A stretch of DNA of 64,000 bases, taken from positions 11,942-75,941 of the forward strand of contig CAWHEJ010000034.1 in the NCBI GenBank assembly GCA_963828305.1, written 5' to 3'. Source of the stretch: an uncultured delta proteobacterium (GTDB lineage Bacteria; Desulfobacterota; Syntrophia; Syntrophales; UBA2192). The notes beneath the pieces were generated by a model that was not told where the DNA came from, made no database searches, and saw only the letters and a list, made by a program, of their open reading frames with translations. Below, in pieces: positions 2,921-59,276 of the stretch. Position numbers and translations under genes: made by a program. Numbering within the stretch: the first letter of the stretch is position 1; each line of letters opens with the position of its first letter.

Positions 2921-4078
2921 TCAGCCGATCCTCCTCAAACCATCGGCAATGCGGATATTCACGGCGCGCCAGGTGGGGAAAAGCGCCGCCACGATCCCCA
3001 CGAGGGTCCCTGCGGCGATGTCCATGTACACCGTCTCCCGCTCCACGAAGAAGATGGGGAAGAAGGTCCCCAGATAATCGGCAAATGCCGCCGCAACGGG
3101 GAAGGTGAGCCCGATCCCGATCGCCGTCCCCGTGAGGCTGATGACGAGCGACTCCCCGAAGATGAGCCCCGCGATGAACCAGCCCCCGAAGCCCAGGGTC
3201 TTGAAGACGGCGTACTCGCCGATCCGCTCGCGGGCCGTCATGGCCATCGTGTTGGCGACAACGGCCATGATGATGACAATGATCACGATGGAGACGAGCT
3301 GGATGGCGACGAGGATTGCCTCCGTCATGGAGACGAAACTCATCTGGAAGGCCTTCTCCGTCTCCGTGAGGGTCTCGGCAAGCGAATTCTTGAAGGTTCC
3401 GTCGATCGTCGTGCTCACCTCGCCCGCGAGGTTCGGGTTCGCAATGCCGATGATGTAGTACCCCGCCTGGTCCGCACGCCGCGGCGACGCCTTCCTCATC
3501 GTCTCGTTCAGGTAATCCCAGTGGAAGAAGAACTGGGTCTCGTCGACGCTGCGGTCCTTGCCCCGGTAGATGCCGCGGATGGTGAACTCCCAGTTGCCGG
3601 GGAAGATCGTCCCCTTGAGGGTGACCGTGTCCCCCACCTTCCAGCCGAACTTCTCGGCGATTTTCTTCCCGGCGACGGCGCCCTTGCGGTCGTTCAGGAA
3701 CGCGGCACGCTGCAAATCCGGGATGATGTACTCCGGGTAGAGGGCAAGGAAGCTGCGGGGGTCCACGGCGAAGTTGGGGAAAAAATTCTTCTCCTCGATG
3801 TAGACGCCGCCGAACCAGTTGCCCCAGGAGACGAGGGTCACGCCGCCGACCTGCCGGATCTTGTCCTTGTAGGCCAGCGGCAACGGGAAGACGAGCGAGA
3901 TGGCATTGCGGATCACGAGGCGGTTGGCCGAGGAGGCTTCCACACCTGCGTACCAGGCGCTCACCATGGTCCGCAGCATCCCGAAGGCGAGGATGGCGAT
4001 GGTGATGCCCAGGATGGTGAGCCCCGTTCTCAGCTTGTGGCGAAAGGCGTTGCGGATGAGGAGCTTAAGAATGCGCAT
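2921..4078 (-). CDS. ABC transporter permease, FtsX/MacB-like (second permease of the operon)
   Basis: 385 aa; same architecture (RERIGEYAVFKTLGFGGWFIAGLIFGESLVISL); overlaps the ATPase gene by 14 nt. Confidence 0.85.
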   Translation of the reverse strand: MRILKLLIRNAFRHKLRTGLTILGITIAILAFGMLRTMVSAWYAGVEASSANRLVIRNAISLVFPLPLAYKDKIRQVGGVTLVSWGNWFGGVYIEEKNFFPNFAVDPRSFLALYPEYIIPDLQRAAFLNDRKGAVAGKKIAEKFGWKVGDTVTLKGTIFPGNWEFTIRGIYRGKDRSVDETQFFFHWDYLNETMRKASPRRADQAGYYIIGIANPNLAGEVSTTIDGTFKNSLAETLTETEKAFQMSFVSMTEAILVAIQLVSIVIIVIIMAVVANTMAMTARERIGEYAVFKTLGFGGWFIAGLIFGESLVISLTGTAIGIGLTFPVAAAFADYLGTFFPIFFVERETVYMDIAAGTLVGIVAALFPTWRAVNIRIADGLRRIG

Positions 4079-4805
4079 TGTTCAGGGAGCCCTTGTCCAG
4101 GTGGCGGATCACCTGGGCCGCCTCGGCGGCCTTGGGGTCGTGGGTCACCATGATGATGGTCTTTCCCGACTCGCGGCTGAGCCGGCACATCAGCGACATG
4201 ATCTCTTTCGCCGAGGCGCGGTCCAGGTCCCCCGTGGGCTCGTCGGCCACCAGGATCGTGGGGTCCGTCACGACGGCCCGGGCGATGGCCACGCGCTGCT
4301 GCTCGCCGCCGGAGAGCTGCGAGGGGTAGTGATCCATCCGGTGCGCGAGGTTCACCACGCTCAGGGCCATCTCCACGTGCTCTCTCCTCTCCGACCGGGA
4401 GAGCCCCGTGAGCTGAAGGGGCAGCTCCACGTTCTCGAAGGCCGTAAGCACCGGGATCAGGTTGTAGAACTGGAAGATGAACCCCACGTTCGTGGCCCGC
4501 CAGTGAGCCAGTTCCGTCTCTCCGAGGGCCGTGATGTCGACGCCGCCGATGACGATCGAGCCGCTGTCCACCTTGTCGATCCCGGCAATGAGGTTCAGAA
4601 GTGTGCTCTTTCCCGACCCCGAGGGGCCCATCAGCGCGAGAAACTCTCCCTCGCGGATGTCGAAGTTAATCTCCTGGAGCACGGGGATGACGTGGCTGCC
4701 GCGCAGGTAGGCCTTGTTGACGTTTCTGACCTCGACGATGACGGGCCGGTTCTCCAGCTCGGGTGCAGGCCCTTGCTCATCGCAGGTTGTGATCGGGTCG
4801 GCCAT
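4065..4805 (-). CDS. ABC transporter ATP-binding protein (MacB/LolD-like ATPase)
   Basis: Walker A GPSGSGKST, signature LSGGEQQRVAIARA, Walker B ILVADEPTGDLD. Start moved to ATG 4805 because the upstream 22 codons are repeat B1. Confidence 0.9.
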   Translation of the reverse strand: MADPITTCDEQGPAPELENRPVIVEVRNVNKAYLRGSHVIPVLQEINFDIREGEFLALMGPSGSGKSTLLNLIAGIDKVDSGSIVIGGVDITALGETELAHWRATNVGFIFQFYNLIPVLTAFENVELPLQLTGLSRSERREHVEMALSVVNLAHRMDHYPSQLSGGEQQRVAIARAVVTDPTILVADEPTGDLDRASAKEIMSLMCRLSRESGKTIIMVTHDPKAAEAAQVIRHLDKGSLNNAHS

Positions 4806-4820
4806 GGTCTTGCTCGAATC

Positions 4821-4928
4821 AAGAAGTTGAGAGGGTGAGAGGGTAAGAAGGTTGGAAAAGCCGGCGGTCAATCGTTTGCCCTGTGCTTTGCCGACCTTCT
4901 CACCTTCAGACCTTCTTACCTTCTGTCT
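4821..4928. repeat. family B palindrome copy 1 (GAGGGTAAGAAGGTTGG ... CCGACCTTCTCACCTTC)
   Basis: Arms of GAAGGT/GAGGGT-type tandem units, inverted around a ~45-nt non-conserved centre; lies inside the efflux operon between adaptor and ATPase genes. Confidence 0.8.
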
Positions 4929-6167
4929 TTATTTCTCGGCCTGCTTGACGCGGCTTCCGCTCTTGAGGCCCTTGGGCGGGTTCAGGACAACCCGGTCACC
5001 CGCCTTGACGCCGCCCGTCACGACGAGCAGATCCCCCAGTTTCTCGCCCGTCGCGATCTCCTGCTCCTCCACCTGGCCGCCCTTGACGACAAAGACCACG
5101 GTCTTGTTGTTCCGGCTCATCACGGCGGCGGGGTTGATCGTCGTGAGGGACTTCTCCTCGCCGGGTCCCACCGGTTTGGACAGGAAGGCCACCTTGGCGC
5201 TCATCTCCGGGAGGATCCGGGGGTCCTTGTCGAGAAAGCGGACCTTGACCATGACGGTCGCCTTGCTTCGGTCCGCCGTGGGGATGACCATGTGGACCTC
5301 TCCACGGAAACGCTTGTCCGGCAGGGCGTCGAGCTGGATCTCGCAGGGCTGTCCGGCCTTTACCTGTTCGAGGTTCGACTCCGACACGTCGGCCTCCACC
5401 TGCAGCGAGTTCATGTCTGCAATGGTGACGACGGCCGCCTTGGCGTTGGCGGCGGCGCCCAGGGGCGTTATGATGTCACCGATGTCGGCATTCTTGGTGA
5501 GAACGACGGCGTCGAAGGGTGCCCGGACGAGGGTGTACTCCACGCTCACCCTCGCCCCCTCGAGGGCGGCCTCGGCGGCCTTCACGGCGGACTCGGCGCC
5601 GGAAACGCCTGCGACGGCCTTCTTGTAGCGGGCCTCGGCCGCGTCATGCTGGGCCTTTGTCGTGTACTCCTGGGACAGGAGTCCCTTCTCCCGCTCGTAG
5701 GAGATCTTGGCATCCTCCCGCTCCGCGCGAGCCTGGGCAAGGCTGTATCGGGCGACACTGACGTTCGCCTGGGCCTGTTCCCGGGCCGCGGCTGCGTCGG
5801 CTCCTTCGAGCCTCGCAATGATGTCCCCCTTCTTCACGCGGCTGCCTTCCTCGACGTTGATCTCCAGAAGCTGGGCCGTGATCTTCGAGGCGACGGCGGC
5901 TTTGCGCTGGGCAACCACATAGCCGCTGGCATTGAGAAGCGTGAAGGACTGGGAGGGGTAGGTCTGGCTCACCGTGGCCACTTCCACCGACTGGGCGGGG
6001 CTGAAGACCCCCATCCAGAACAGGACGGCCGCCAGCACCACAAGGGCCGCACCGCCGATGATGAGCATCGGCTTTTTTCGCCGGCCCTGCTGGACGGACT
6101 TTGCGGACTTGTCGATCTTGAGCCGGGAGAGATCGTCAGCTGCCATAGGGTCACTCTTTCGTCGCAT
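4929..6167 (-). CDS. efflux transporter periplasmic adaptor subunit (HlyD/MacA family)
   Basis: TM anchor LIIGGAALVVLAAVLFWMGVF, long coiled coil (AAAAREQAQANVSVARYSLAQARAEREDAKISYEREK), beta-barrel C-terminus. Start ambiguous (ATG 6218, 6167 or 6146). Confidence 0.85.
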   Translation of the reverse strand: MRRKSDPMAADDLSRLKIDKSAKSVQQGRRKKPMLIIGGAALVVLAAVLFWMGVFSPAQSVEVATVSQTYPSQSFTLLNASGYVVAQRKAAVASKITAQLLEINVEEGSRVKKGDIIARLEGADAAAAREQAQANVSVARYSLAQARAEREDAKISYEREKGLLSQEYTTKAQHDAAEARYKKAVAGVSGAESAVKAAEAALEGARVSVEYTLVRAPFDAVVLTKNADIGDIITPLGAAANAKAAVVTIADMNSLQVEADVSESNLEQVKAGQPCEIQLDALPDKRFRGEVHMVIPTADRSKATVMVKVRFLDKDPRILPEMSAKVAFLSKPVGPGEEKSLTTINPAAVMSRNNKTVVFVVKGGQVEEQEIATGEKLGDLLVVTGGVKAGDRVVLNPPKGLKSGSRVKQAEK

Positions 6168-54932: not shown

Positions 54933-56297
54933 TCACTCCTCCCGTTCTTCCTTCTGGTCCCGGTCCCTGGCTGCCTGCTCCCGGATCCTGCGCCATTTCG
55001 ACAGACGCTCCCGGATAACCTTCTCGTACCCGCGGTCCGTGGGCGAATAGTAGACCTGCCCCTGGAGCTTCTCCGGAAGATGGTCCTGCGGTACGATGGC
55101 CTCCTCGTAATCGTGTGCGTATTTGTACCCTTTGGCATAGCCGAGATCGCGCATGAGCCGCGTGGGCGCGTTGCGGATGTGCAGGGGCACGGGCAGGGTC
55201 CCCGTTTTGCCGATGACGGATTTCACCTTGCCGTATGCGCGGTAGACGGCGTTGCTCTTGGGGGCCGTGGCAAGGTAGACGGCCGCCTGCGCCAGCGAAA
55301 GCTCGCCCTCCGGCAGCCCGATGAAATGAAAGGCCTGCATGGCCGCCATGGCCACTGTGAGGGCCATGGGATCGGCGTTGCCGATGTCCTCGGAGGCAAA
55401 ACGGATCATGCGCCGGGCGATGTAAAGGGGGTCCTCGCCCGCCTCGATCATGCGCGCGAGCCAGTACAGCGCCGCGTCGGGGTCGCTCCCCCGGAGGCTC
55501 TTGTGCAAGGCAGAGATGATGTTGTAATGCTCCTCGCCCGCCTTGTCGTACTGCAGGGCCTTGCGCTGCAGGGCCGTCTCGGCCAGTGCCAGGGTGATGG
55601 TGCGCTCCGCGGCGGCCCTGCCGGCCATGAGCGAGGCCGCGGCCTCGAGGTTGTTGAGGGCCGTTCGCGCATCGCCGTCGGCGGCGCGGACCATGTGGTC
55701 GAGCGCCTCGGGCTCCGCCTCGATCGAGAGCCCGCCCAGGCCCCTCCGGGTGTCGCGGAGCGCCCGCCGGAGGATCTCCGCAAGCTCCTCTTCGGTGAAG
55801 GGCCGCAGGACCATGACGCGAGTGCGGGACAGAAGCGGCGAGATGACTTCGAAGGACGGGTTTTCCGTCGTGGCTCCGATCAGCGTGATGAGGCCGCTCT
55901 CCACGTGGGGCAGGAAGGCGTCCTGCTGGGCCTTGTTGAAACGGTGGATCTCATCGACAAACAGGATCGTTCTCCGGCCCGTCCGCTCGAGCTCCACCCG
56001 GGCTTCTTCGATGACGCCCCGGATCTCCTTGACTCCGGAGAGAACCGCCGAAAAGGTGGCGAAATGGGACTTCGTCTCGCCGGCGATGATGCGGGCAAGG
56101 GTGGTCTTCCCGGAGCCGGGCGGCCCCCAGAAGATCATGGAAAAGAGGCGGTCTTCCTCGATGGCCTTGCGCAGCAGCCCCCCCTTTTCCAGGATGTGGG
56201 ACTGACCCACATATTCCTCGAGGGTTTCCGGCCGCATCCGGTCCGCCAGGGGGCGGGCATTTTTCAGTCGTTCATCGGAGGAGTCCATTCGCTCCAC
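54933..56297 (-). CDS. rarA: replication-associated recombination protein A (AAA+ ATPase)
   Basis: Walker A GPPGSGKTTLA; Walker B ILFVDEIHRFNK; MgsA C-terminal domain (HYNIISALHKSLRGSDPDAALYWLARM). Confidence 0.95.
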   Translation of the reverse strand: MERMDSSDERLKNARPLADRMRPETLEEYVGQSHILEKGGLLRKAIEEDRLFSMIFWGPPGSGKTTLARIIAGETKSHFATFSAVLSGVKEIRGVIEEARVELERTGRRTILFVDEIHRFNKAQQDAFLPHVESGLITLIGATTENPSFEVISPLLSRTRVMVLRPFTEEELAEILRRALRDTRRGLGGLSIEAEPEALDHMVRAADGDARTALNNLEAAASLMAGRAAAERTITLALAETALQRKALQYDKAGEEHYNIISALHKSLRGSDPDAALYWLARMIEAGEDPLYIARRMIRFASEDIGNADPMALTVAMAAMQAFHFIGLPEGELSLAQAAVYLATAPKSNAVYRAYGKVKSVIGKTGTLPVPLHIRNAPTRLMRDLGYAKGYKYAHDYEEAIVPQDHLPEKLQGQVYYSPTDRGYEKVIRERLSKWRRIREQAARDRDQKEEREE

Positions 56298-56657: not shown

Positions 56658-58028
56658 CTACCGCCCGATACACTTCGGGTGCTTCTCGATGGCCTTGAGG
56701 GCCCTCTGGATCTCCTTGTCGGGCAGCTCGTGGGGCTCGAGCTTCCCCGAGAGGTAGTTATCGTAGGAGGCCAGGTCGATGATCCCGTGGCCGCTGTAGT
56801 TGAAGAGGATGACCTTCTCCTTGCCCTCTTCCCGGGCGCGTTTCGCCTCGTCCACAACGGCGGCGATGGCATGGTTCGTCTCGGGGGCGGGGATGAACCC
56901 CTCGGTGCGGGCAAAGAGAACGCCCGCCTCGAAGGTCTCGAGCTGGTTGTATGACCGGGGCTCGACAATCTTCTCGTTGACGAGGTGGCTCACGATCGGC
57001 GCCATCCCGTGGTAGCGAAGCCCGCCTGCGTGGATCGACTCGGGGATGAAGTCGTGGCCGAGGGTGTGCATGGGAAGAAGCGGGGTCATCTTGGCCACGT
57101 CGCCGAAGTCGTAGGCGAAGGGACCCTTGGTGAGGGTCGGGCATGACGCGGGCTCGGAGGCGATGATGTGAACCTTTTTCCCGTTGATCTTGTCCCGCAC
57201 GAAAGGCAGGCTCACGCCGCCGAAGTTGCTTCCGCCGCCGGCACAGCCGATGACCACGTCGGGGTATTTGCCGATCTTCTCGAATTGCTTCTTCGCCTCG
57301 AGGCCGATGACGGTCTGATGCATCAGCGTGTGGTTCAGCACGCTCCCCAGGGAATAGCGACAGTCCTTGGTCGAGACCGCGTACTCGACGGCCTCGCTGA
57401 TGGCCACGCCGAGACTGCCGGGGCAATCCGGATCCTGGGCGAGGATGTTTCGCCCCGCCTGGGTCCTCTCACTGGGGCTCGGGGTGCAGTTGGCGCCCCA
57501 CGTCATCATCATCATGCGCCGGTAGGGCTTCTGGTTGTAGCTCACGCGGACCATGAAGACCTCACACTCCAGGCCGAACATCTGGCAGGCCATGGCCAGG
57601 GCGCTTCCCCACTGCCCCGCGCCCGTCTCCGTCGAGAGCTTCTTGATCCCGAAGACCTTGTTGTAATAGGCTTGCGGGATGGCCGTGTTGGGCTTGTGGG
57701 AGCCCGGGGGGCTCACGCTTTCGTCCTTGTAGTAAATCTTGACGGGGCACTTCAGGGCCTTCTCGAAATTGAGGGCGCGCCTCAGCGGCGTGGGCCGGTA
57801 CAGGAGGTACTTGTCCAGGACCTCGTCGGGAATCGTGATCAGGCCCTCCGTGCTCACCTCCTGCTCGATGATGTTCATGGGAAAGATGGGGGCCAGGTCC
57901 TGCGGGCCGACCGGCTTGCCGGTGCCGGGGTGAAGGGGAGGATTCATGGGAGTCGGCAGGTCGGGTATGATATTGTACCATTGCCTGGGAATCTCCGCTT
58001 CGCTCAGCATGATCTTTCGCTCTTCCAT
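56658..58028 (-). CDS. trpB: TrpB2-type tryptophan synthase beta chain (stand-alone, no trpA adjacent)
   Basis: PLP-lysine region [11 protein letters not shown]; TrpB2-style N-terminal extension ([13 protein letters not shown]). ATG 58028 follows GAAGGAGG. Confidence 0.85.
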
Positions 58029-58133
58029 CTTTTTTGCCTCCTTCATTTCGTTTCTTTCGTTTATGCGTTTATTTTCGATTATGAAGTCTCTTTCTTTGTT
58101 CCCCACCTGAGAAACAGCTCCATCTGATTCGAA

Positions 58134-58214
58134 GAAAATCCCCCTCTATCCCCCTTTTTAAAAGGGGGAAGCGTTATGACTCCCTCCTTTGCAAAAGGAG
58201 GGTTGGGGAGGATT
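58134..58214. repeat. family A copy 5 (degenerate double-hairpin core, no arms) in the trpB2 5' UTR
   Basis: AAAATCCCCCCTCTATCCCCCTTTTTAAAAGGGGGAAGCG ... CTCCCTCCTTTGCAAAAGGAGGGTTGGGGAGGATTT. Confidence 0.65.
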
Positions 58215-58272
58215 TGATACGTCATGCTTCTTCCCTGGACACCCCGGTGTCCGGGGACGGTTCCGGACACGC

Positions 58273-58310
58273 AAATAACAAAAAAGCCATGGGAATTTCT
58301 CCCATGGCTT
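58273..58310 (-). terminator. attenuator terminator of the trp leader
   Basis: Minus strand: 11-bp stem AAGCCATGGGA (58310-58300) / TCCCATGGCTT (58294-58284), loop GAAAT, then TTTTGTTATTT. Confidence 0.7.
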
Positions 58311-58360
58311 TATACTTTGGCTGAGCCATGGGTGATCTTCCTCACCCACAGCCCCTTATG

Positions 58361-58441
58361 TCAATAAGAGGGCCCCGTGGGCAGGGTCCTGTTGCCCTGC
58401 CACCACCAGCCGAACGTGTTGATTGCGAAAAGCCTGTTCAT
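58361..58441 (-). CDS. trpL: tryptophan leader peptide (26 aa) with three consecutive Trp codons
   Basis: Hand translation MNRLFAINTFGWWWQGNRTLPTGPSY*; TGG TGG TGG at 58408-58400; sits between a promoter-like site and a terminator/antiterminator, upstream of trpB2. Confidence 0.65.
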   Translation of the reverse strand: MNRLFAINTFGWWWQGNRTLPTGPSY

Positions 58442-58460
58442 AATCGATACCTGCCTGCCC

Positions 58461-58487
58461 ATTATCACAGGCTTTTTCCCCTGTCAA
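58461..58487 (-). promoter_or_regulatory. sigma-70-like promoter for the trp leader/trpB2 transcript
   Basis: Minus strand TTGACA (58487-58482) - 15 nt, ending in TGT (extended -10) - GATAAT (58466-58461). Confidence 0.5.
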
Positions 58488-58667
58488 GTCCTTCCCATAA
58501 AGTTTGGCGCCCCTCCTGCAAACCCGTCGGGGTGACCTTTTCGGGCATCAGGCAGGGCCCGCCACGGCTGCCCCCGCAAGGAGAAAACGTCAGAATGGGC
58601 TTATTTTATTGAAAAAAAAGTGCTTTTCTGTTAACTAGAAAAAGCCATCGGCACATGGCCCAAATCT

Positions 58668-59276
58668 ATGCTTCTGTCGATCAACGAGAAGAACCCGCAG
58701 GTGCGGCTGATCCGAAAAGCCGTCGAAGCGCTGCGAAACGGGGGGATCATCATCTATCCCACGGACACGGTCTACGGGATCGGCTGCGATCTTTACAACA
58801 AACGGGCGATCGAGAAGATCCACGAGCTCAAGCGCCGCAGCCAGAAGCAGCCCTTCAGCTTCATCTGTGCCGACCTGAGTGACATCAGCCAGTATGCCCT
58901 TGTCACCAATTACGCCTACAGGACCATGAAACGGTTGTTACCGGGGCCCTACACGTTCATCCTCCCCGCGTCGCGTCTCGTCCCCAAGATCCTGATGACG
59001 AAACGGCAGACCACGGGAATCCGGGTCCCTGCAAACGAGATATGTCTGTCGCTCGTGCGCGAGCTGGGACACCCCATCATCAGCACCAGCGCATCGACGG
59101 ACAAGGACGAGATCCTGAGCGACCCGGAAGAGATCCGGGACCGCTACGGGCATGCCGTGGAGCTCATTCTCGACGGGGGCATCCTCACATCGGAGATGTC
59201 CAGCGTCATCAGCCTCGTGGACGACGTTCCCGAGGTGATACGCGCCGGTAAGGGCGACGTGAGCGAGTTCCAGTAA
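58668..59276 (+). CDS. tsaC: L-threonylcarbamoyladenylate synthase (YrdC/TsaC type)
   Basis: YrdC domain IIIYPTDTVYGIGCD ... KRRSQKQPFSFI ... TSAS. Confidence 0.9.
   Translation: MLLSINEKNPQVRLIRKAVEALRNGGIIIYPTDTVYGIGCDLYNKRAIEKIHELKRRSQKQPFSFICADLSDISQYALVTNYAYRTMKRLLPGPYTFILPASRLVPKILMTKRQTTGIRVPANEICLSLVRELGHPIISTSASTDKDEILSDPEEIRDRYGHAVELILDGGILTSEMSSVISLVDDVPEVIRAGKGDVSEFQ

Follow-up and report, generated by a model that had tools for sequence, protein, structure and literature searches.

The question raised by this locus is what controls a tryptophan synthase gene that stands on its own. In the stretch of 64,000 nucleotides analysed here (the window; contig CAWHEJ010000034.1, from an uncultured delta-proteobacterium), the gene trpB2, encoding a TrpB2-type tryptophan synthase beta-like pyridoxal phosphate enzyme of 455 aa, occupies positions 56658–58025 of the minus strand and carries a GGAGG motif 8 nt before its ATG. 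It is separated by a 642-nt gap (trpB2 ATG at 58025, divergent ATG at 58668) from a gene for a TsaC-type L-threonylcarbamoyladenylate synthase, and a first-pass annotation of the same DNA had placed in this gap, on the trpB2 strand, a tryptophan (Trp) leader peptide with a terminator/antiterminator switch. The analysis described below, based on the sequence, its relatives and modelled RNA folds, points with good confidence to the same answer: the element is most likely a ribosome-mediated (leader-peptide) transcription attenuator that would sense charged tRNA-Trp and control the stand-alone trpB2. It brings together a short open reading frame (ORF) with tandem Trp codons, an intrinsic terminator, antiterminator helices competing with that terminator, and a codon placement that would allow the ribosome to select among them.

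Anatomy of the leader

Read along the minus strand, the leader is preceded by a -35-like hexamer, TTGACA (58482–58487), and, after a spacer of 15 nt, by an extended -10 element, TGtGATAAT (58461–58469, with the hexamer at 58466–58461). The same -35-like hexamer is found in the two closest relatives (loci L001 and L002), and its sequence is unconserved in remoter loci. In promoter motif scoring the window was at the top of the set, with a score of 11, and the strong motif was limited to the window and these two relatives; for this reason, we treat the promoter as inferred, with transcription probably starting just upstream of the leader ORF. A consensus promoter scan did not report the window promoter because it requires spacers of 16–18 nt. 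The ORF itself (MNRLFAINTFGWWWQGNRTLPTGPSY followed by a stop; 26 codons plus stop, 58361–58441, minus strand) opens with an ATG at 58441, preceded at 8 nt by AGG, a weak Shine-Dalgarno (SD)-like motif, and closes with a stop codon at 58363–58361. It contains three tandem Trp codons, UGG UGG UGG (58400–58408), which constitute the proposed sensing site.

From the Trp codons onwards, six conserved segments follow one another on the same strand, and adjacent ones are complementary, so that five mutually exclusive helices can be drawn (0:1, 1:2, 2:3, 3:4 and 4:5). Segment 0 (GUGGUGGCAGGG, 58395–58406, from RNAalifold) comprises Trp codons 1–3 plus CAG and has segment 1 as its partner. Segment 1 (CCCUGCCCACGGGGCCC, 58370–58386), which lies within the leader ORF and holds a conserved CUGCCCA block, can pair with segment 0 or with segment 2. 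According to folds and pair counts, segment 2 (GGGCUGUGGGUGAGG, 58340–58354) would pair with segment 1 in the read-through state and with segment 3 in the termination state, and staged folds give segment 3 (UCACCCAUGGCU, 58324–58335) either segment 2 or the 5' arm of the terminator as its partner, the latter pairing being the antiterminator. Segments 4 (AAAGCCAUGGGAG, 58299–58311) and 5 (UUCCCAUGGCUUU, 58283–58295) are the 5' and 3' arms of the terminator, supported by a terminator scan and by the relatives. They are followed by the U-rich tract UUUGUUAUUU (58273–58282, from direct reading and the terminator scan), where premature 3' ends would be expected (at about 58275). That scan, run independently, returned a stem of 13 bp over 58311–58283 and, after it, TTTGTTATTT.

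Direct reading of the minus strand thus left the promoter, the 26-codon WWW ORF and the terminator where the first-pass annotation had located them, with a stem of 13 bp by the scan. Its statement that the gap holds no ORF of 60 aa or more had to be corrected, since mechanical ORFs of 63, 63 and 94 aa are present between trpB2 and tsaC, none of them coding-like. The pairings that it had folded by hand were all reproduced by computed folds: the antiterminator formed by CCCAUGGCU with the terminator 5' arm, the sequestration of that antiterminator segment by GGGCUGUGGGUGA in the alternative state, and the alternative pairing of GGGCUGUGGGUGA with the leader-coding CCCACGGGGCCC. What the hand-folded set had missed was a fifth helix, in which the Trp codons plus CAG pair with CUGCCCAC.

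Conservation in relatives and departure from chance

The simplest objection to a switch of this kind would be a chance juxtaposition, in which an ordinary terminator and other hairpins happen to lie next to a fortuitous short ORF and have no regulatory role. Short ORFs and hairpins are indeed frequent in GC-rich intergenic DNA, and hairpin repeats lie nearby in the window. Against this, the sequence TGGTGGTGG of the sensing site is found at a single place on the two strands of the 64-kb window, and the predicted fold of the 185-nt leader region has an energy of -77.9 kcal/mol, with a z of -5.2 relative to dinucleotide shuffles. A total of 80 genomic loci was gathered by TrpB2 protein similarity alone, 74 of them with sufficient upstream DNA. 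A WWW-containing short ORF was present upstream of the trpB2 homologue in the sense orientation in 17/74 and in the antisense orientation in 0/74, compared with 6/2102 control tiles (0.3%), which represents an enrichment of about 80-fold over the tiles.

Equivalent short leader ORFs precede trpB2 in about 20 genome bins, most of which carry Syntrophales, Smithella or generic delta-proteobacterial labels. The N-terminal parts of these peptides diverge, WWW(Q/R) and short tails like ...LTVCP-stop are common, and the spacing of the segments and the position of the stop are kept. In the genome-derived WWW loci checked, a hairpin with a U-tract lies 45–100 nt past the leader stop, with a single exception (L021), a locus missed by the terminator finder whose terminator and U-tract are visible in the alignment. 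In these relatives the terminator arms read GCCAUGGG/CCCAUGGC, with compensatory variants GCCACGGG/CCCGUGGC and GCUGUGGGA/UCUCACGGC.

Metagenome contigs were searched with an RNA-only pattern containing no trpB2 sequence (TGGTGGTGGCAG N6-20 CTGCCC N18-45 TGGGYRRG), which matched at least 120 stretches. Among the matches listed, 105 are followed by a TrpB2 (70–92% identity) starting 100–410 nt downstream, 8 have too little downstream DNA because the contig ends, and 4 are chance matches within coding sequence; the same list holds one genuine leader before a trpE-like gene (L114) and two before a complete LivHMGF plus binding-protein ATP-binding cassette (ABC) operon (L119 and L126). More than 100 independent contigs therefore keep the ORF, the stems, their order and spacing and the terminator before trpB2, with covariation in the pairings. 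This was the comparison that the first-pass annotation had named as a potential refutation, and it came out in favour of the leader. A chance juxtaposition is thus effectively refuted, and we regard it as barely credible.

Competing helices and covariation

Two alignments were used to follow the pairings: A1, of 21 sequences retrieved via the protein only and therefore unbiased regarding the RNA, and A2, of 95 sequences. RNAalifold recovers helices 0:1 and 4:5 by itself. The termination state (0:1 + 2:3 + 4:5) was paired in 93.7% of the alignment cells of A2, compared with 38–51% in slid controls, and in 89.4% of those of A1 (controls, 34–49%). For the read-through state (1:2 + 3:4) the figures were 82.5% in A2 and 77.4% in A1, the slid controls giving 37–46% in both cases. 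Taken singly, helix 0:1 is paired in 97.5% (A2) and 95.2% (A1) of cells and shows compensatory changes in its two distal pairs, helix 1:2 in 82.7% (A2), helix 3:4 in 82.2% (the 95 sequences) and the terminator helix 4:5 in 96.8% (A2), with compensatory variants.

One pair of helix 1:2 is particularly informative, as it is C-G in 41 sequences of A2 and U-A in another 41, and its bases keep their other partners via wobble (G-U or G-C in 0:1, and G-U or A-U in 2:3). Judged from the alignment, this is the pattern expected of a base that serves two structures, and it is because the bases do so that the arms are conserved in sequence instead of covarying freely. The duplex energies calculated for the window are -16.6 (0:1), -21.0 (1:2), -20.2 (2:3), -17.5 (3:4) and -20.8 kcal/mol (4:5), and by this calculation the five helices are energetically balanced.

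At two loci (L120:553-701 and L124:7554-7702) the 2:3 hairpin (GCCGUGGGUGAGG…CCCCAUGGCUC) is directly trailed by a U-run, where the terminator finder halted; these may represent a shortened architecture or two tandem terminators.

Ribosome position and the proposed switch

All the aligned leaders (95/95) have an in-frame start, and their median length is 19 aa. Adopting textbook sizes for the ribosome footprint (about -15 to +13 for a terminating ribosome), the position of the Trp codons relative to the helices could be evaluated. In 95/95 leaders the core of segment 1 starts 11–17 nt (median 14) past the last Trp codon, that is, on these sizes, just past the front of a ribosome whose A site holds a UGG. 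The footprint of a terminating ribosome overlaps the same core in 93/95 leaders, and the stop codon, whose position varies over about 35 nt, precedes segment 2 in every one of them.

Folds staged with the ribosome in place agree with this geometry. With the ribosome stalled and the terminator 3' arm still unmade, the window leader forms an extended 1:2 hairpin together with the 3:4 antiterminator (-41.5 kcal/mol), and the terminator 5' arm has 10 of its 13 bases paired. When the ribosome is placed on the stop codon instead, the fold consists of 2:3 and the terminator, and most relatives behave as the window does. The logic already put forward in the first-pass annotation, in which a stall at WWW leads to read-through and arrival at the stop to termination, was thus recovered in the window and in most relatives. 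Under this scheme, when Trp is scarce the ribosome would stall on UGG-UGG-UGG and cover segment 0; segment 1, just past the edge of the ribosome, would pair with segment 2, and segment 3, now free, would pair with the terminator 5' arm, letting the polymerase read through into trpB2. When Trp is sufficient, the ribosome would reach the stop and mask segment 1 and the core of the 1:2 hairpin, so that 2:3 and 4:5 would form and transcription would end near 58275. If the leader is not translated at all, 0:1, 2:3 and 4:5 would be expected to form, also leading to termination.

It could be asked whether the ribosome is needed at all, as the same helices might belong to a translation-independent RNA, riboswitch-like or protein-bound, with a UGG run conserved only for pairing and an ORF that is incidental. 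Pairing with CUGCCCAC does explain part of the UGGUGGCAG block, an SD-like motif precedes the in-frame start in just 39/95 leaders, and, since Trp is encoded by UGG alone, synonymous changes cannot serve as the customary test at the codon level. However, most Trp-codon columns are invariant in A1, including the U and the G of the first UGG, which lie outside helix 0:1. The invariance of a codon almost wholly outside that helix, together with variants that retain Trp codons (WCWW in L010, WWWW in several loci), argues for selection at the codon level, beyond pairing. The universal in-frame start and a stop whose position puts segment 1 under a terminating ribosome in 93/95 leaders also speak against such an RNA, as do the different W-rich short ORF upstream of trpB2 in Bacteroidales and the lack of T-box or other Rfam matches and of TRAP-type (G/U)AG repeats (both described below). 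An RNA acting without translation is therefore very unlikely in our judgement.

A different role for the ribosome would be that known for TnaC, with free Trp sensed in the ribosome tunnel, arresting release at the stop codon and thereby setting the outcome. Many relatives end in ...VCP-stop, and slow release at a Pro-stop is a feature of TnaC. In addition, a ribosome arrested at the stop would mask segment 1 and favour termination at high Trp, as would suit a biosynthetic gene. The window leader ends instead in ...GPSY-stop, with no Pro-stop; moreover, the stop position spreads over the range given above, the tails are explained by the RNA segments that they encode, and a run of three Trp codons typifies sensors of tRNA charging. 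We thus consider a TnaC-like arrest highly improbable and retain attenuation through charged tRNA-Trp.

The ...VCP-stop ending is seen in about half of the A2 leaders (for example, L017:462-642), in place of the ...PSY-stop of the window, and it arises because CUGCCCAUAA doubles as segment 1 and as Pro-stop. A Pro-stop is a slow-release context, and its slow release might prolong the masking of segment 1.

Weight of the evidence

Several observations weigh against attenuation by this leader, or against parts of it. At equilibrium, the minimum free energy fold of the full leader RNA is the terminator state every time, and therefore the switch depends on co-transcriptional kinetics, which lie outside the fold model. 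In truncated folds with no ribosome the terminator 5' arm is often paired; as these folds are not clean, super-attenuation is kept here as a prediction only. The 15-nt spacer of the window promoter is short and the promoter is kept in the closest relatives only, to which the scarcity of SD-like motifs mentioned above must be added. As for the alignments, 74 of the 95 A2 rows were retrieved by a pattern that fixes some of the columns (which is mitigated by the A1 counts), L025 has two central antiterminator mismatches in the alignment, and the leaders of L029 and L010 are divergent. In the window itself, the stretch from the terminator to trpB2 contains a repeat of about 85 nt. More generally, the case is built on anatomy, conservation, covariation, spacing and thermodynamic plausibility, from which the promoter and start site, the translation of the ORF and the response to Trp in vivo are inferred.

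The leader is also absent in several close Syntrophales relatives (L005, L014 and L016, upstream of position 3001; L007 and L009). An Rfam scan of 20 related loci without the leader found no element and no T-box in them, from which it follows that some lineages have lost the attenuator or replaced it. In the leaderless relatives, trpB2 lies about 90 nt after a gpsA-like gene or about 300 nt after a gene for a UbiA-type prenyltransferase.

Relation to known attenuators

An Rfam scan of positions 57900–58800 (E <= 10, permissive filters) gave no match to the Trp_leader family, RF00513, and returned only spurious microRNA (miRNA) and terminator-like matches. The window leader is, therefore, analogous to that family and not a member of it. 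With the E. coli trpL leader (RF00513) it shares a short ORF with tandem Trp codons, overlapping anti-antiterminator, antiterminator and terminator hairpins, a decision on termination that depends on the position of the ribosome, and the control of genes for Trp supply. There is, however, no homology of sequence or structure between the two. E. coli trpL has two Trp codons, compared with three here, and three alternative helices, compared with five, the Trp codons of the window leader being part of an extra 5' segment; its target is the trpEDCBA operon in the one case and a monocistronic trpB2 in the other, in a lineage (Syntrophia, Thermodesulfobacteriota) distinct from that of E. coli.

The additional tier brings to mind the his attenuator of Salmonella and E. 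coli, which has six segments (A–F) and 7 His codons, controls a full biosynthetic operon and terminates by default when it is not translated. Both consist of a chain of alternating helices, in which a stalled ribosome masks the first segment and the effect is passed along to the antiterminator, although the his element senses His and is unrelated in sequence. By analogy, the logic of the window leader may be described as that of E. coli trpL with one tier added in the manner of the his attenuator.

Closer in the amino acid that is sensed are the actinobacterial trp attenuators described by Seliverstov et al. 2005 (PMC1262725), which include one before 'trpB2A' in Corynebacterium diphtheriae. 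They have leader peptides with UGG codons and complementary 'triples' common to antiterminator and terminator, whose sequence conservation likewise arises from multiple pairing constraints. The trpB2 of C. diphtheriae, in contrast, is a trpA-linked second trpB copy, and both the motif (GGCC-type) and the lineage differ. In the Firmicutes, Trp-responsive transcription attenuation before trp genes relies on T-box (Trp) or TRAP leaders, whose sensors differ from the one proposed here, being uncharged tRNA bound directly by the RNA in the former and the TRAP protein on (G/U)AG repeats in the latter. When these systems were looked for, no covariance-model match to a T-box was found in the window region or in 20 related loci, and the interval 58490–58026 has no run of at least five (G/U)AG triplets of the kind found in TRAP-regulated leaders (9–11 such triplets, 2–3 nt apart).

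Sinorhizobium meliloti offers a further parallel, as PMC6614838 describes a Trp leader-peptide attenuator before a single trp gene, trpE(G). It differs in that its released products, the rnTrpL RNA and the peTrpL peptide, have been shown to have functions in trans (PMC6614838, PMC7298713). This precedent raises the alternative that the window leader acts primarily through a small RNA and/or peptide that termination releases and that works in trans, with cis control of trpB2 as a secondary matter; the terminated transcript, of about 180 nt, would be stable and highly structured. The peptide, on the other hand, is unconserved beyond WWWQ and the codons constrained by the RNA, and the leader is nearly always directly upstream of trpB2; besides, a product acting in trans would be compatible with attenuation in cis. 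A primary function in trans thus appears very improbable, and none of the three alternatives (an RNA independent of translation, a trans-acting product or a TnaC-like arrest) is needed to explain the data.

In the literature that could be searched, which was limited, no Trp leader was found to have been described for genes of the TrpB2 type or in Syntrophales, the attenuator of C. diphtheriae being the nearest case, and Naville and Gautheret 2010 make no mention of trpB or of these taxa. Together with the lack of an Rfam match, this is consistent with the hunch in the first-pass annotation that no Trp leader had been annotated for TrpB2. Rodionov et al. 2004, considered as a possible source for a delta-proteobacterial Trp attenuator, makes no mention of tryptophan. 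The window leader is apparently an undescribed and widely conserved version of the classic switch in syntrophic anaerobes, abundant in anaerobic metagenomes. As the mechanism is a textbook one, the conceptual surprise is modest. We can entertain, with more doubt than conviction, the broader notion that these leaders make up an uncatalogued RNA family, a 'WWWQ / CUGCCCA / CCAUGG' five-helix Trp attenuator of Syntrophia and relatives, with TrpB2 as its dominant target and trpE and a Liv-type transporter as minor ones. A compact five-helix attenuator rich in covariation would be well suited to RNA family databases and would improve the annotation of Syntrophales.

TrpB2 and other probable targets of the leader

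The product of the regulated gene is clearly of the TrpB2 type: it scores 734.3 bits with NF009057 (cutoff 366) over residues 2–439 and 651 bits with TIGR01415 (cutoff 519), compared with only 149 bits with the canonical trpB model TIGR00263, whose cutoff is 392, and the alignment of its homologues begins at residue 1. Its nearest relative, with 93% identity, belongs to a metagenome-assembled genome of Syntrophaceae, in the lineage Thermodesulfobacteriota, Syntrophia, which agrees with the deltaproteobacterial look that had been noted earlier. In the relatives no trp genes were found beside trpB2, the neighbours being a gpsA-like gene, a gene for a UbiA-type prenyltransferase and rarA. The gene is therefore stand-alone across the clade, as previously noted for the window.

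The physiological role of TrpB2 proteins encoded outside operons, a matter of doubt for many years, was described in 2007 as not yet identified (PMC1854888). Indole scavenging and O-phosphoserine-dependent Trp synthesis have been proposed for TrpB2 (Hettwer and Sterner 2002, Busch et al. 2014, as cited in PMC11917138). A conserved sensor of tRNA-Trp charging before a monocistronic trpB2, in more than 100 contigs, would be regulatory evidence that the enzyme is made when Trp is short, and this evidence would be independent of any enzyme assay. As had been anticipated in the first-pass annotation, the leader thus very probably gives regulatory evidence, read from sequence, for a function of TrpB2 in tryptophan supply. 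On the broader and more doubtful notion of an RNA family with TrpB2 as its dominant target, the formation of Trp by TrpB2 from indole (with serine or O-phosphoserine) would be the main response of these syntrophs to Trp starvation. Such a response could reflect cross-feeding of indole among anaerobic consortia, and the physiological role of bacterial TrpB2 outside operons would then be settled.

The few leaders found before other genes are compatible with this function. In L114 a leader (L114:16-185; VRKLVSFECWWWQAL followed by a stop) with competing stems and a terminator precedes a gene of 465 aa (L114:201-1598). Among NCBIfam models this gene matches anthranilate synthase component I best, with 367 bits, a score that falls short of the equivalog cutoff. 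In L126 (L126:1-4724) and L119 (minus strand, about 4100-5180), a leader ending in QAWWWWQGLVCPLRA and a stop precedes an operon for LivH, LivM, LivG, LivF and a substrate-binding protein, and this operon may encode an importer of tryptophan or aromatic amino acids that is subject to Trp attenuation. Both the trpE-like gene and the amino-acid ABC transporter of Liv type, each behind the same leader scaffold, fit a Trp-supply regulon, and would outline a small one in a poorly studied, hard-to-culture group. No second copy of the attenuator was found across the 1.46 Mb of contigs examined.

Outside this group, trpB2 loci of Bacteroidales/Bacteroidetes (L079:2813-2899 and L076:2815-2904) are preceded by a W-rich short ORF of another kind (…NSWRWRWWHK… and …NNCWCWRWWY…), for which a simple scan gave no clear terminator. 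These ORFs suggest that trpB2 has a separate Trp leader of its own in a second phylum.

Neighbouring gene and dispersed repeat

Downstream of trpB2, on the same strand and after a gap of 100–500 nt, lies a gene for a rarA-type AAA ATPase (54933–56297, minus strand), an arrangement also seen in most Syntrophales relatives (for example, L022:4651-6003). Upstream, the distance from the terminator to trpB2 is about 248 nt, far more than in most relatives, because a dispersed hairpin repeat has been inserted there. This copy (58134–58217, minus strand), the repeat that had been noticed earlier between the attenuator and trpB2, lies between the attenuator and the trpB2 ribosome-binding site, outside the switch. 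The core of the repeat, CCCCCTTTTAAAAAGGGGGA, is present in at least five copies in the window when up to three mismatches are allowed, compared with 0.02 expected. Further copies lie at about 1609, 23893, 56572 and 61137, one of them just downstream of trpB2, and the repeat is the source of the spurious miRNA-like Rfam matches mentioned above.

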